Source: a virus. Taken from it: a stretch of DNA of 43,119 nt. Positions 14,483 through 40,733 of this stretch are shown here, one piece after another (the stretch's first letter is position 1; every line of letters begins with the position of its first letter). The stretch lies in UHGV virus genome UHGV-0017337; one strand, given 5' to 3'. Under the pieces are notes generated by a model that saw only the letters and a list, made by a program, of their open reading frames with translations, searched no databases and was not told where the DNA came from. A program made the position numbers and the translations under genes.

Positions 14483-14524
14483 TTAAAATAATTCTTGACG
14501 GATTACACAAGGACGTGTAACCTA
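14483..14524 (+). promoter_or_regulatory. Conserved early promoter element copy 1 (UP-like TTAAAATAATTC, -35 TTGACG, 17-bp spacer with TTACAC/GTGTAA inverted repeat, -10 TAACCT)
   Basis: 44-bp stretch identical to copy at ~29676; precedes GGAGGG RBS and the Imm-like gene. Confidence 0.6.
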
Positions 14525-14553
14525 CAATCAACAAAACAACGGAGGGTTACAAA

Positions 14554-14733
14554 ATGGCTACTTTCATCATTCTTTTCTTAATCGCTGCTGTATATCTAAT
14601 CCCAGCACTCATCGCGATTAACGTTAAACATAAACAACAAACAGCAATTATTTTACTTAACATCTTTGCGGGTTGGACATTCGTCGGTTGGTTAGGTGCG
14701 TTAATCTGGTCTGTGTTAAAAAGCGACAAATAA
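14554..14733 (+). CDS. Superinfection immunity (Imm-like) small membrane protein, 59 aa
   Basis: Not in track (<60 aa); GGAGGG RBS; NIFAGWTFVGWLGALIWSV matches the GWT-x-GW-x-AL-IW signature of Imm-like proteins; stop abuts nuclease ATG. Confidence 0.5.
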   Translation: MATFIILFLIAAVYLIPALIAINVKHKQQTAIILLNIFAGWTFVGWLGALIWSVLKSDK

Positions 14734-14734
14734 G

Positions 14735-15838
14735 ATGAGTAGGAAACGTTTAACCACAGAAGAGTTTATCACACGTGCCCGTGAAGTTCATGAGCACAAA
14801 TACGATTACTCGCTAGTGGAGTATGTTAAATCATCGGTTAAAGTTCGAATCATTTGTCCGATACACGGAGTGTTTGAACAGAGTCCTAATAATCATGTTT
14901 CAATGAAACAAGGTTGCCCGCAATGTGCTGTTGAACAACGATATTTGAACACCAGAGAATTCATTAAACATGCTCGTGAAGTTCACGGAGACCGTTACGA
15001 TTACTCATTGGTGGAATATAAACACAACCTGAGCAAAGTTAAAATTATCTGTCCTAAACATGGTGTATTTGAACAACGTCCATGTGACCACGTATCAAAG
15101 AAAAAAGGTTGCTCGGGTTGTGCCAATAATCAACGATTAACCACAGAAGCGTTTATCACTCGTGCTCGTGACATTCATGGGGATCGTTATGATTACTCAT
15201 TGGTGGAGTATGTGAACGCTCGTTCGTGTGTGCAAATCATCTGCCCTGAACACGGGATATTTGAACAAACTCCACATGTTCATTTAAAAAGCAGTGGTTG
15301 CCCACAGTGTGGTTCTGAACAAAAAGCAGAACAAAAACGTTTAGGTGCGGGAGAATTCATCACTCGTGCTCGTGACATTCATGGGGATCGTTACGATTAC
15401 TCATTGGTAGAGTATTTGAATAATCGTAGTAAAGTTCGAATCATCTGCTCTGAACATGGTGTATTTGAACAAACTCCTGATACTCATTTGAAAGGTTGTG
15501 CTTGCCCACAATGTTCACAAGCAGGTTTTAACCCGTCAGAACCTGGAACGCTCTACGTGTTAGCTGATGATAAACAGTATCCCACTCTGATTAAAATTGG
15601 TATTACAAATAACTTAAAACGACGACTACACCAACTACGACGCGAAACTCCACACCATGTGGTTAAACTCGTGTCGTATCCATTTCCACACGGCGCTGAT
15701 GCTTACAAACTGGAACAAGAGGTACACAAGGTCTTTCACGAACTTAATGCGCGTCTCAAAGGCTTTGACGGTGCTACAGAGTGGTTTAAATACTCTCCTG
15801 CAATCCTCGACTACATAAATGAAAAAGCCCGGAACTAA
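14735..15838 (+). CDS. T5orf172/GIY-YIG-like nuclease with four N-terminal Cys/His repeat modules (homing-endonuclease-like)
   Basis: C-terminal LYVLADD...IKIGIT...RR..QL...EWF signature; N-terminal 4x module FITRAREVHGDRYDYSLVEY..KV.IICP.HGVFEQ.P..H...GCPQC. Confidence 0.55.
   Translation: MSRKRLTTEEFITRAREVHEHKYDYSLVEYVKSSVKVRIICPIHGVFEQSPNNHVSMKQGCPQCAVEQRYLNTREFIKHAREVHGDRYDYSLVEYKHNLSKVKIICPKHGVFEQRPCDHVSKKKGCSGCANNQRLTTEAFITRARDIHGDRYDYSLVEYVNARSCVQIICPEHGIFEQTPHVHLKSSGCPQCGSEQKAEQKRLGAGEFITRARDIHGDRYDYSLVEYLNNRSKVRIICSEHGVFEQTPDTHLKGCACPQCSQAGFNPSEPGTLYVLADDKQYPTLIKIGITNNLKRRLHQLRRETPHHVVKLVSYPFPHGADAYKLEQEVHKVFHELNARLKGFDGATEWFKYSPAILDYINEKARN
15157..15416 (+). repeat. Intragenic direct repeat: two ~56-bp near-identical copies (~15157-15212 and ~15361-15416) encoding adjacent repeat modules
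   Basis: cactcgtgctcgtgacattcatggggatcgtta[t/c]gattactcattggt[g/a]gagtat read directly. Confidence 0.6.
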
Positions 15839-15858
15839 CCGGGCTTATGTTTATTTTT
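15826..15858. terminator. Bidirectional hairpin terminator between convergent nuclease and chaperone genes
   Basis: AGCCCGG-AACTAA-CCGGGCT stem-loop flanked by A-run upstream and T-rich tract downstream; core CCCGGAACTAACCGGG recurs at ~40667. Confidence 0.55.
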
Positions 15859-16158
15859 CTTCATCTCGGCAACACGTGCAGACCGCAATGCTATCAATAA
15901 TTTCCACAAAAATTGTACATCAACGTTATACACCCGTGCATACCGCTCACAAGCAACCCAATCAGCGTCCATCAGATCCAAATAAGCATTCCAGTAAAAT
16001 ATAGCATCAGGTCGCAATTCAGGACGTTTCTGTACAACACTCGGAACAGATATACCACGTGCAGCCGCCCCTTGTGCAACCCAGTCCAGGTCATCCCCGG
16101 CTGTCCGCTCGTTCCACAAGAGAAAGTCAATCAGTTTTTTGTGATATCTTTCTCCCAT
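15835..16158 (-). CDS. Tail assembly chaperone frameshift extension (gpT-like -1 frame ORF)
   Basis: Overlaps upstream chaperone ORF by 28 nt in the -1 frame across slippery heptamer A AAA AAC. Confidence 0.5.
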   Translation of the reverse strand: MGERYHKKLIDFLLWNERTAGDDLDWVAQGAAARGISVPSVVQKRPELRPDAIFYWNAYLDLMDADWVACERYARVYNVDVQFLWKLLIALRSARVAEMKKNKHKPG

Positions 16159-16553
16159 TCGTCCTTGAAGAATGCGGAATTAATTGCAAACTGAATAACA
16201 CGACTGTAGATCACCTGCCCAAAACGTTCGTCACTTAAGAGTTCAATAGCTTCTTCAACACTGAATGGTTCCGGTTTGTCATCTTCACCAATCAGTTTCC
16301 AGTCCAGCATAAGAACGTTAGCCACGAACTTAACACCTTCTGGTGTATATTCCTGATTCCACAGTTTTTCAAAGAAGTTTTCAGACAACACACCGTTCTG
16401 TTTTACATAGTCTGCGACTGTTGCGTTATATACCTGGTTAGCGGTGTTCAGGTTCAACACTGTGATACTGAAGTTTTCATTTAAGATCAGTTCAGCAGAA
16501 GACTTCAGCACCAGTGGAGAAAGTGCTTTTTTCAGATGATCAAACTTTGACAT
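16131..16553 (-). CDS. Tail assembly chaperone (gpG-like)
   Basis: Position between major tail and tape measure genes; ends DITKN* spanning the slippery site. Confidence 0.5.
   Translation of the reverse strand: MSKFDHLKKALSPLVLKSSAELILNENFSITVLNLNTANQVYNATVADYVKQNGVLSENFFEKLWNQEYTPEGVKFVANVLMLDWKLIGEDDKPEPFSVEEAIELLSDERFGQVIYSRVIQFAINSAFFKDEWEKDITKN
16134..16140 (-). other. Programmed -1 ribosomal frameshift slippery heptamer A_AAA_AAC
   Basis: 0-frame ACA AAA AAC TGA; -1 frame CAC AAA AAA CTG continues into ORF 15835..16158. Confidence 0.5.
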
Positions 16554-16610
16554 GGTTTTTACCTTTTATGTAGTAGACGATTAGATAGTAATAGTTCTGT
16601 ACAAATTACG

Positions 16611-39911: not shown

Positions 39912-40066
39912 AAACCTATGACGGTGTGCCCGTGAAGATTATCGCTGAAAACACGCGCGGCGATCTGGAACTGGAAGTAACTGAAAAGATGCCCTGGGAA
40001 TCGTCGCCTGATGTTGGCGATCGTTTCTGGGTTACTGGCGATGACGAATATTTAAAAGGTGAATAA
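39908..40066 (+). CDS. Small acidic protein (52 aa)
   Basis: Not in track; ATG overlaps rdgC stop (ATGA). Confidence 0.3.
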
Positions 40067-40067
40067 C

Positions 40068-40325
40068 ATGAATTTTGGTGAAGCAGTTACGATGATGAAC
40101 ATCGGTCATAAAGTTGCCCGTAATGGTTGGAACGGTAAAAGTATGTTTCTGTTTTTGATAGCAGGTGATTCCTGGGGTTTTGAATGTGATATTGAAGGTG
40201 TGGATGGTTTGGATACTTTACCATTTGTTTGTATGAAAACGGCAGATAATAAATTAGTGCCTTGGCTTGCAAGTCAGACTGATGTTTTAGCTGACGACTG
40301 GAAAATAGTAGGTGATGTGAAATGA
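40068..40325 (+). CDS. DUF2829-like small protein (same family as Thoeris anti-defence Tad2), 85 aa
   Basis: Start at Met4 of track ORF; MNFGEAVTMMNIGHKVARNGWNGKSMFLFL ... PWLASQTDVLADDWKIV pattern as I recall for DUF2829. Confidence 0.4.
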   Translation: MNFGEAVTMMNIGHKVARNGWNGKSMFLFLIAGDSWGFECDIEGVDGLDTLPFVCMKTADNKLVPWLASQTDVLADDWKIVGDVK

Positions 40326-40657
40326 AAACAGAACAGGAACGTATTATTCAGTGGTTATGCTCTGGTGAAACGGGACTGAGTTCTAAAACGATGATCTGCA
40401 TTCACACAGGTAATGAAATGGATGGTGAATGGGGTTTTCGTGCACCGAGGGATGTTTCCGATTTTCGCCGTTGTTGGTCCCTGGTTAAAGCTGTACCGGA
40501 AATCAGAAAAAGTTTTCCATTGATTGCTGAAAAGTGTCCGGCATTTAAAGGCGTGATTGAAAACTGGGATGTTATTAGTGCAGCTTATGAACGTGAACAC
40601 GGATCCGGTAAATGTCCTGAAACGTATCGGTTACTGAAAGAAGCGTTGGGCGAATAA
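40322..40657 (+). CDS. Hypothetical Cys-containing protein (111 aa)
   Basis: ORF track; last gene before terminator. Confidence 0.35.
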   Translation: MKTEQERIIQWLCSGETGLSSKTMICIHTGNEMDGEWGFRAPRDVSDFRRCWSLVKAVPEIRKSFPLIAEKCPAFKGVIENWDVISAAYEREHGSGKCPETYRLLKEALGE

Positions 40658-40666
40658 TGAACATTA

Positions 40667-40690
40667 CCCCGGAACTAACCGGGGTTTTTA
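40667..40690 (+). terminator. Intrinsic terminator
   Basis: CCCCGG-AACTAA-CCGGGG hairpin followed by T5; same core as ~15826. Confidence 0.6.
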
Positions 40691-40691
40691 T

Positions 40692-40733
40692 TTAAAATAA
40701 TTCTTGACAGATTACACAAGGATGTGTAAATTA
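40692..40733 (+). promoter_or_regulatory. Conserved early promoter element copy 9 (-35 TTGACA, spacer with TTACAC/GTGTAA inverted repeat, -10 TAAATT)
   Basis: TTTAAAATAATTCTTGACAGATTACACAAGGATGTGTAAATT. Confidence 0.6.

Follow-up and report, generated by a model that had tools for sequence, protein, structure and literature searches.

A repeated sigma-70-type promoter element, probably read by host RNA polymerase, heads small-gene blocks in a 9NA-like siphophage

Genes and Repeated Elements at the Locus

The 43,119-nt stretch of viral DNA analyzed here (UHGV virus genome UHGV-0017337; “the window” denotes this whole stretch) comes from a 9NA-like siphophage (Nonanavirus/Sashavirus) and represents a new member of that group, with ~95% identity over most of its length to the Escherichia coli phages KarinMuster_Bas82 (hereafter Bas82), AVIO78A, PJ16, and BDX09P1, and 82–94% identity to the Salmonella phages Sasha, Sergei, and 9NA. 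It is reversed relative to the GenBank records, with the virion genes (i.e., those for the small and large terminase subunits TerS and TerL, portal, capsid, and tail) on the − strand, and ~15 kb of the phage genome falls outside it. Set among these virion genes are five + strand regions that together hold nine copies—eight good and one degenerate (P5')—of the repeated, promoter-like element that is our subject here, with P4, P5, P7, and P8 placed as internal or serial promoters (Table 1). Counting one further copy on the − strand (Pm), the window carries nine good copies (8 on +, 1 on −) and one degenerate copy, with the consensus TTTAAAATAATTCTTGACrGATTrCA.

The repeat is far more abundant than expected: the 9-mer ATTCTTGAC has 11 exact matches in the window vs. 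0.55 expected, and the 18-mer TTAAAATAATTCTTGACR, with up to three mismatches allowed, has 11 vs. 0.18 expected, a count reached in 0 of 100 shuffles. Good copies share a single layout, TTTAAAATAATTC-TTGACR-rATTRCA followed by the remainder of the spacer, which measures 17 bp (at 28535, 18 bp), and then TAnnnT, in agreement with the UP-like part, consensus −35 box, 17-bp spacer, and variable −10 box described in the original prediction, which was made from the sequence alone. The positions given there for the + strand copies (14483, 24674, 28535, 29677, 32773, 36427, 38103, and 40692, with the degenerate copy at 31876) were accurate to 1–2 nt, and the count of nine (eight good, one degenerate) was right for that strand but overlooked the full − strand copy at 24347-24388. 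A long identical run between two copies is likewise present, though it measures 46 bp (at 14482/29676) and not 44 bp. Inverted repeats within spacers were recovered as TTACAC-N6-GTGTAA at 14483, 29677, and 40692 and as CAGA-N4-TCTG at 36427, and the reported overlap with the 3' end of the preceding gene was seen at three copies (29677, 32773, and 38103; overlapped reading frames are listed in Table 1). Two other statements were too broad. Specifically, the idea that a copy heads every + strand accessory block holds for the five + regions but not for two other sets of + strand genes, the DNA polymerase block (299-4148) and the tailspike (5548-7515), which have no copy within the window, and the “similar motif” at ~20440 (−) has only the 9-mer in common with the element, scores <14 bits against our position weight matrix, and is not a member.

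Pm and P2 together form a 62-nt inverted repeat of two outward-facing promoters. Orthologues of Pm are present in AVIO78A, Bas82, BDX09P1, 536P12, and PJ16, and the P4 orthologues of Bas82, 536P12, and BDX09P1 have −35 mutations. A match at 36155 (−), inside the TerL gene, was rejected as a chance match. Separately, a degenerate copy on the − strand at 2158-2175 (TTTAAATAATTCTATACGGTTTACC) occupies the 40-nt gap after the DNA polymerase gene, points antisense into that gene, and is kept in all relatives, with the same placement noted in 9NA, Sasha, and AVIO78A and a variant form in a Proteus phage (PmiS-Isfahan; see below).

Conservation and Distribution of the Element

We scanned eight relatives—9NA, Sasha, AVIO78A, Bas82, BDX09P1, 536P12, PJ16, and the Klebsiella phage Carvaje, up to 50 kb per genome—with a position weight matrix built from the window copies (cut-off 14 bits), for a group comparison of 10 sequences (the window plus the eight relatives, Bas82 being present as two segments). 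The relatives carry 9–12 copies per sequence examined, and Bas82 holds 14 over its two segments. Rather than being absent from close relatives, the elements were found at matching positions in all relatives examined, where they also head replication operons that lie outside this window.

Across the 95 copies from the window and the eight relatives, a near-invariant core extends from −46 to −23 between flanks of ~0–0.5 bits. Among the 82 unique copies, this core reaches 1.7–2.0 bits except at −30, −29, and −25, the last of these being a free A/G choice, and positions −22 to −13 are nearly without information. TTGAC is invariant in ~79–82 of the 82 unique copies across the group, and TTGACR occurs in 9/9 good window copies. 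When each half of the core was followed separately, 79 of 87 occurrences of AAAATAATTC were found to continue into TTGAC (the remaining 8 differ from the element at a single base), and 84 of 84 occurrences of TTGACNNATTRCA were preceded by AAAATAATTC or by a variant one or a few bases off, where chance would give about one. The element is one composite unit, the halves of which never occur apart.

Multi-copy matches (9–14 per complete genome) are confined to the 9NA-like group, as judged from a BLAST search of a 32-mer against 50,697 phage records. An IMG/VR scan with a 15-mer returned mostly single chance matches in unrelated contigs, the only 9NA-like ones being L075 and L083, and 5,426 complete E. 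coli genomes yielded only a few matches. In the distant Proteus phage PmiS-Isfahan, ~8 copies take the variant form TTTAAAATATAGCTTGACAGATTACAG, with TTGAC and GATTACA retained; nearly all of them read TAGC, or something close to it (ATGC, TGGC), in place of ATTC. This pattern, uniform within a lineage and different between lineages, points to concerted evolution or to co-evolution with a factor.

Outside the group, one of the few E. coli matches is the full cassette, which stands before a hicB(DUF1902)/hicA pair in a prophage of E. coli MB07152 (locus L136, 2500-2570), with a 26-bp core and ~61 nt to the ATG, and the full cassette heads hicB/hicA with the same geometry in the Klebsiella prophage ST512-KPC3phi13.3 (locus L143, 1500-1570). 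These hicB/hicA-bearing temperate phages are unrelated to 9NA, and a search of the examined 9NA-like genomes turned up no hicB homologue. The presence of the cassette in such prophages suggests that it can travel and that host polymerase alone is enough for its function.

A Probable Promoter–Leader Cassette for Host RNA Polymerase

A TAnnnT motif stands at the right spacing in 81 of 91 copies (60 at 17 bp and 21 at 18 bp), compared with 4.8% of random positions, and a Shine-Dalgarno sequence, start codon, and open reading frame (ORF) follow 87 of 91 copies, compared with 22% of random positions. Copies are co-oriented with their downstream genes, the predicted transcription start is a conserved CA, and the start codon keeps a fixed distance from TTGAC (median 61 nt, interquartile range 60–64), so that the unit appears to be a promoter–leader–ribosome-binding-site cassette of ~75 nt. 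Upstream, the A/T-rich TTTAAAATAATT at −48 to −37 resembles the proximal UP subsite only, and −49 to −60 is not conserved. With matching positions in relatives, co-orientation, and a fixed distance to the Shine-Dalgarno sequence and start codon, the promoter function first proposed for the repeats has strong in silico support. We put at roughly 80% the probability that host RNA polymerase (sigma-70) uses them as the standard promoter of the 9NA-like phages (Nonanavirus, Sashavirus, and Carvajevirus), built as an expression cassette. On this reading, the feature is of a known kind, being a family-specific host-polymerase promoter in a group of virulent phages; its uniformity is unusual, as is the presence of an unexplained conserved box.

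In the mechanism we propose, the A/T-rich UP-like part (−48 to −36) would bind the C-terminal domain of the polymerase alpha subunit, and the invariant TTGAC(R) −35 box would be bound by sigma region 4. The spacer of 17–18 bp would then begin with the invariant ATTRCA (−28 to −23), its second half being variable, and lead to a weak and variable TAnnnT. After this would come the predicted CA start, a 25–28-nt A/C-rich leader, a Shine-Dalgarno sequence, and the first start codon ~61 nt after TTGAC. After DNA entry, host polymerase would most likely fire from all 9–14 copies at once, which would express small host-takeover and anti-defence genes, nucleotide-metabolism genes, and recombination genes, along with the replication operons outside the window. 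The units oppose the virion-gene strand and end at bidirectional terminators facing the late genes, an arrangement that would prevent early transcription from entering the late genes. Given the weak −10 boxes, promoter strength is probably set by the common UP/−35 core, in which case one polymerase change or one DNA-binding factor could switch the whole promoter set.

Several points weigh against this reading. The searchable literature yielded neither mapped transcription starts nor expression time courses for any member of the group. A generic sigma-70 scan is not enriched in the region (38 found vs. 40.6 expected), so that the case for a promoter depends on the extended motif in its setting; scans for generic sigma-70 sites and terminators proved useless for telling real copies apart, only the extended motif being informative. 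Known RNA polymerase contacts do not explain why ATTRCA (−28 to −23) is invariant. Pm, on the − strand, stands before the capsid operon, and no predicted terminator precedes the major capsid gene; therefore “early only,” “accessory only,” and “+ strand only” are not strictly right. Finally, the conservation figures are partly circular, the copies having been gathered with a matrix from the window copies, a concern that the separate search with each half of the core lessens.

The alternative that the copies are a non-functional dispersed repeat (selfish or relic) that merely resembles a promoter has nothing specific in its favour and appears highly implausible, given the strict co-orientation with downstream genes, the fixed 61-nt distance to start codons, the correctly spaced −10 boxes, and the retention of the element across hosts from E. 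coli to Klebsiella, with a variant in Proteus. We also considered whether the element might act from its other strand as a late promoter, since its reverse complement precedes the TerL, portal, tape-measure, and 28503 genes by 29–60 nt; this candidate was set aside, as internal copies without a divergent gene are equally conserved.

The early promoters of T4 and T5 and promoters A1–A3 of T7 serve, in many copies, to express host-takeover genes immediately through unmodified host sigma-70 polymerase. The element, likewise present in many copies, would share this use of host polymerase for immediate expression, and like these promoters and rrnB P1 it has a strong −35 box and an A/T-rich upstream part. 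Unlike the T4, T5, and T7 early promoters, it is near-invariant over 24 consecutive positions (including 6 bp in the spacer), its −10 boxes are weak and variable, and its distance to the start codon is fixed. Such a compact, 75-nt expression cassette of fixed geometry is a possible tool.

The 9NA and Sasha GenBank records carry no promoter annotation. In the AVIO78A record (MZ726797; Smith et al., 2023, PMC10612097), several sites of the family carry the label “similar to TTGACA(N15-18)TATAAT.” That annotation is generic and leaves the shared extended element unmentioned; it lists seven promoters, and those checked do not all coincide with the 11 family members in that genome. We found no description of the element in the literature searched; an earlier one may exist in the single genomics paper on the group (Zeng et al., 2019, J Virol, PMC6819911). 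For the poorly studied 9NA-like group (9NA, Sasha, the BASEL phage Bas82, and Klebsiella Carvaje-like phages), the element offers a ready transcription map. The + strand blocks of the window are the small genes scattered among virion genes whose odd layout was first noted for 9NA, and this layout is explained if they are self-contained, promoter-headed units, mostly opposing the late genes.

The ATTRCA Box and a Possible Regulator

Positions −28 to −26 and −24/−23 are invariant in ~80 of 82 unique copies, which brings into play a different emphasis, namely that ATTRCA (−28 to −23), with an inverted TGYAA half-site in some copies, is a regulator site through which a protein, phage-encoded or from the host, would turn all the promoters off or on during the infection cycle. 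The contrast between these fixed positions and a −25 that varies between A and G, with −22 to −13 unconstrained, is in keeping with such a site, as is the retention of the box in Proteus PmiS-Isfahan although the UP-proximal bases differ. The arms of TTACAC-N6-GTGTAA, found at P1, P4, P8, and their orthologues, are also kept while the centre varies among orthologues (AAGGAC, AAGGAT, AGGGAA, AATGGT, ATGGAC), and inverted TGYAA partners recur at spacings of 6, 10–11, and 23 nt, the other spacings occurring at copies elsewhere. However, an inverted partner is present in only 5–6 of 29 promoter groups, where ~2 would be expected by chance, and the operator suggested for the spacers thus does not appear to be general. 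Moreover, Pfam recognized no DNA-binding regulator among the ~40 window proteins except a NinH homologue, and the cassette persists in prophage gene cassettes without any 9NA-like genes. We regard a common regulator as possible and a switch box governing the whole set as rather unlikely.

A broader proposal—that ATTRCA is the docking site of a factor switching the dozen or so early units, through shut-off or polymerase redirection, and that the cassette is also a portable linker for genes, homing endonucleases, and a structured RNA—seems to us slightly less probable again. Sigma-54, lambda CII, a MarA box, integration host factor, and an extended −10 were each tried as explanations of ATTRCA and set aside, as none of their consensus sequences gave a fit by eye. 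Should a dedicated factor recognize it, the box would be a concrete handle on how these phages switch off early transcription.

Cargo and Terminators of the Promoter-Headed Units

By Pfam, the recognizable cargo consists of a superinfection-immunity protein (Imm), dUTPase, RdgC, a Tad2-like anti-Thoeris protein, DUF7448, and DUF7736; the remaining cargo proteins have no Pfam match. As such cargo (Tad2-like, Imm, dUTPase, RdgC) is typically early, an early host-takeover class would fit, and the co-regulated early regulon first suggested for these units is plausible from gene content. The element would then mark the genes likely to act first in infection, including the Tad2-like anti-Thoeris and superinfection-immunity genes. 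The Tad2-like (Thoeris anti-defence 2) domain protein is encoded at 40068-40325 (+; E = 1.4e-25) in the P7 unit, beside RdgC.

Downstream of Pm lie an extra small gene and then the protease–scaffold–capsid genes, and the first predicted terminator (20829-20806) directly follows the major capsid gene. Where the + regions meet late genes there are stem-loops (Table 1), several of which are bidirectional. Three terminator stem-loops (15822-15844, 16616-16638, and 40662-40684) have one sequence family (AAAAAGCCCGGnnnTAACCGGGC) in common, i.e., the terminators are repeated too.

Table 1. Repeated elements, transcription units, terminators, and associated features of the window (positions are those of the whole stretch).
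Feature	Position	Strand	Description
+ strand region 1	14483-15846	+	1 copy
+ strand region 2	24674-26249	+	1 copy
+ strand region 3	28535-30466	+	2 copies
+ strand region 4	31876-34491	+	2 copies
+ strand region 5	36427-41179	+	3 copies
P1	14482-14523	+	UP-like TTTAAAATAATTC, −35 TTGACG, 17 bp, −10 TAACCT; heads imm + homing-endonuclease cassette
P1 predicted +1	~14530	+	
Cargo of P1	14554-15838	+	Superinfection-immunity gene 14554-14733; T5orf172/zinc-finger-repeat homing endonuclease 14735-15838
Intrinsic terminator, bidirectional	15825-15846		End of P1 unit; already in empty site of Sasha, AVIO78A; repeat family D12
Pm	24347-24388	−	−35 TTGACG, 17 bp, −10 TACCCT; heads ORF 23948-24316 + capsid operon
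P2	24673-24714	+	−10 TATCTT; heads block 24757-26249
P3	28534-28576	+	18-bp spacer, −10 TAACAT; heads dUTPase block
P4	29676-29717	+	Internal, −10 TAACCT; overlaps end of ORF 29437-29685
Terminator, bidirectional	30445-30466		P3/P4 unit meets portal gene; annotated in AVIO78A
P5'	31875-31912	+	Degenerate: −35 TAAGCA, spacer 4 nt shorter; GATTGCA, ATTATGC of P5 kept
Second T5orf172 homing endonuclease	31913-32788	+	Between P5' and P5; unique to this phage among 8 relatives compared
P5	32772-32813	+	−10 TATGCT; endonuclease stop within −35; heads block 32845-34466
Stem-loop	34472-34491	−	P5 unit meets TerL; T-run on − strand
P6	36426-36467	+	TTGACA, 17 bp, TATATT; divergent from TerL; long structured leader downstream
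Structured leader RNA candidate	36474-36670	+	197 nt, non-coding, predicted transcript from P6
P7	38102-38143	+	Internal, −10 TAGACT; overlaps end of ORF 37934-38140; heads RdgC/Tad2-like block
Terminator	40666-40685	+	End of P6/P7 unit; sole stem-loop directly adjoining a copy (P8)
P8	40691-40732	+	−10 TAAATT; directly after terminator 40666-40685; heads two small ORFs
Stem-loop	41166-41179	−	P8 unit meets small terminase gene (TerS)

Recombination at the Copies: Comparison with PeSL and Morons

Promoter early stem-loop (PeSL) elements of T4-like phages consist of a strong sigma-70-like promoter, an A/T-rich region, and a stem-loop terminator. They cluster in hyperplastic regions, and mini-circles demonstrate that their copies recombine (Arbiol et al., 2010, PMC2839356; Comeau et al., 2014, PMC4122927). 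The original prediction drew this comparison, and it holds as far as a repeated promoter with an A/T-rich upstream part is concerned: in both systems, many near-identical sigma-70-type promoters stand before small variable genes of unknown function, sometimes at insertion/deletion borders between close relatives. It does not hold for the stem-loop, which is no part of the repeat here. Terminators lie instead at the far ends of the units, a G+C-rich stem-loop adjoins P8 only (40666-40685), P2 has an A/T-rich palindrome nearby, and the other copies have none. Further differences are that the phage is a siphovirus, that its elements also head conserved replication and nucleotide-metabolism operons, and that breakpoints are not clearly concentrated at the elements.

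Homology breaks were mapped between the window and eight relatives other than Carvaje. Promoter zones contain 10 of 83 breakpoint clusters vs. 2.7 expected if placement were uniform (p = 3.5e-4). Breaks fall inside copies at 24698 (P2), 36416-36457 (P6), and 38127 (P7), and one (40692) lies exactly at the start of P8. These observations raise the possibility that the repeats are PeSL-like recombination linkers, i.e., homology patches for inserting, deleting, or swapping promoter-equipped cassettes, a role that is compatible with promoter function, the issue being how significant it is. Consistent with such a role, the promoter of the imm–endonuclease cassette shares the identical 46-bp run with P4, the right joint of the second endonuclease insertion is inside the conserved core, the Proteus phage has its own uniform variant (TAGC for ATTC), as concerted evolution would give, and the cassette is also present in unrelated prophages. 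Yet 73 of the 83 breakpoints are elsewhere, mostly at ordinary gene junctions inside blocks, and gene junctions with an element do not bear a breakpoint significantly more often than those without (8/9 vs. 25/45; Fisher p = 0.075). The imm cassette is joined to its surroundings 20 nt beyond the element on the left and at a resident terminator on the right, and the stem-loop that defines PeSL is, as noted, confined to P8. Recombination at the core does happen, which partly supports the modular shuffling first envisaged, but the analogy is weak, and the breakpoints do not establish the element as the main engine of mosaicism. We consider a major linker role rather unlikely.

Morons of lambdoid phages, known from HK97/HK022 genomics, are promoter–gene–terminator cassettes. 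The imm–endonuclease cassette is similar in being an autonomous, promoter-equipped insertion in the virion cluster, between the tail chaperone and tape-measure genes; it places an accessory gene with its own promoter between conserved genes and is absent from the close relatives AVIO78A and Sasha. The same promoter also heads the hicAB cassette in prophages. Unlike morons, the present cassettes belong to a virulent phage, use one common promoter sequence, and in many cases oppose the late genes, and the imm cassette lacks a terminator of its own, the one at 15825-15846 belonging to the resident site.

Separately, a 2-kb five-gene block follows the large terminase gene in AVIO78A (locus L124, 6926-8976), Bas82, and PJ16 and is absent here (junction 34566-34573). 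In these relatives it is headed by a variant promoter copy on the virion-gene strand, and one deletion border is at that terminator/promoter.

Homing Endonucleases Next to Copies

Both homing endonucleases (Table 1) are T5orf172/MUG113 (GIY-YIG-like) proteins with 3–4 DUF723/treble-clef zinc-finger repeats (Pfam; repeat family D1). The imm cassette (14462-15814; 1.35 kb) replaces 14 nt of the empty site at the tail chaperone/tape-measure junction of Sasha and AVIO78A and is common to Bas82, PJ16, BDX09P1, and 536P12. The second endonuclease insertion replaces 51 nt between the portal gene and P5. P5' now supplies the GGAG ribosome-binding site of the second endonuclease gene, and the stop codon of that gene is the TGA within the −35 box of the intact P5. 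As P5' keeps the GATTGCA and ATTATGC of P5 with a ruined −35 box and flanks the insertion, it is, judging from its sequence, a disabled duplicate of P5 created when the endonuclease gene was inserted.

This proximity would be accounted for if the core were the recognition or homology site of T5orf172 zinc-finger endonucleases, which would then spread from copy to copy. The first endonuclease gene lies behind P1, and the second, flanked by P5' and P5, ends within a −35 box; the ORF immediately behind Pm is an endonuclease remnant, and Sasha gp06 abuts a copy. We nevertheless think it improbable that the copies are landing sites of this sort: the copy nearest to 9NA gp46 is 1.8 kb away, no such endonuclease accompanies the element in Carvaje or the Proteus phage, any inserted gene in these blocks tends to be near a promoter, and independent cases are few.

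The remnant behind Pm (ORF 23948-24316, −) is a nuclease-less relic of the same DNA-binding repeat (blastp 4e-11). Within it, 24071-24140 (−) is a perfect 21-nt tandem triplication that encodes VEPVTTA three times. A perfect 21-nt tandem triplication also occurs at 43051-43119 (+), where it runs into the window end.

A Candidate Structured Leader Behind P6 and Other Repeats

The leader RNA candidate predicted to be transcribed from P6 is 93–97% identical in 9NA, Sergei, Solent, the two Klebsiella phages KP13-27 and phi_KPN_H2, 536P12, and BDX09P1, and is not present in AVIO78A, Bas82, PJ16, Sasha, or Carvaje. It is better conserved than the surrounding genes, and the gene that follows it differs between phages. 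No Rfam family matched, and no distant homologues were found, a metagenome scan giving only chance matches and a covariance model no diverged copies. The predicted fold is a closed multi-branch structure of 55 pairs, in which 98.5% of cells are paired and three different helices show compensatory changes, compared with 0–1 in controls in which the pairing partners were slid by 1–3 columns. We propose the leader as a candidate new phage RNA.

Beyond the promoter element, ~nine iteron-like repeats (TAGTGCAnnnTGTGY with ATTAGCTG) occupy 41950-42460, upstream of the small terminase gene. That interval and 24469-24678, which separates the two divergent promoters (24347/24673) ahead of the capsid operon, have in common a 100-nt A/T-rich repeat (90% identical) and CAGCTAATACA palindromes. 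These iteron-like and A/T-rich repeats are possible pac, origin, or late-control sites.

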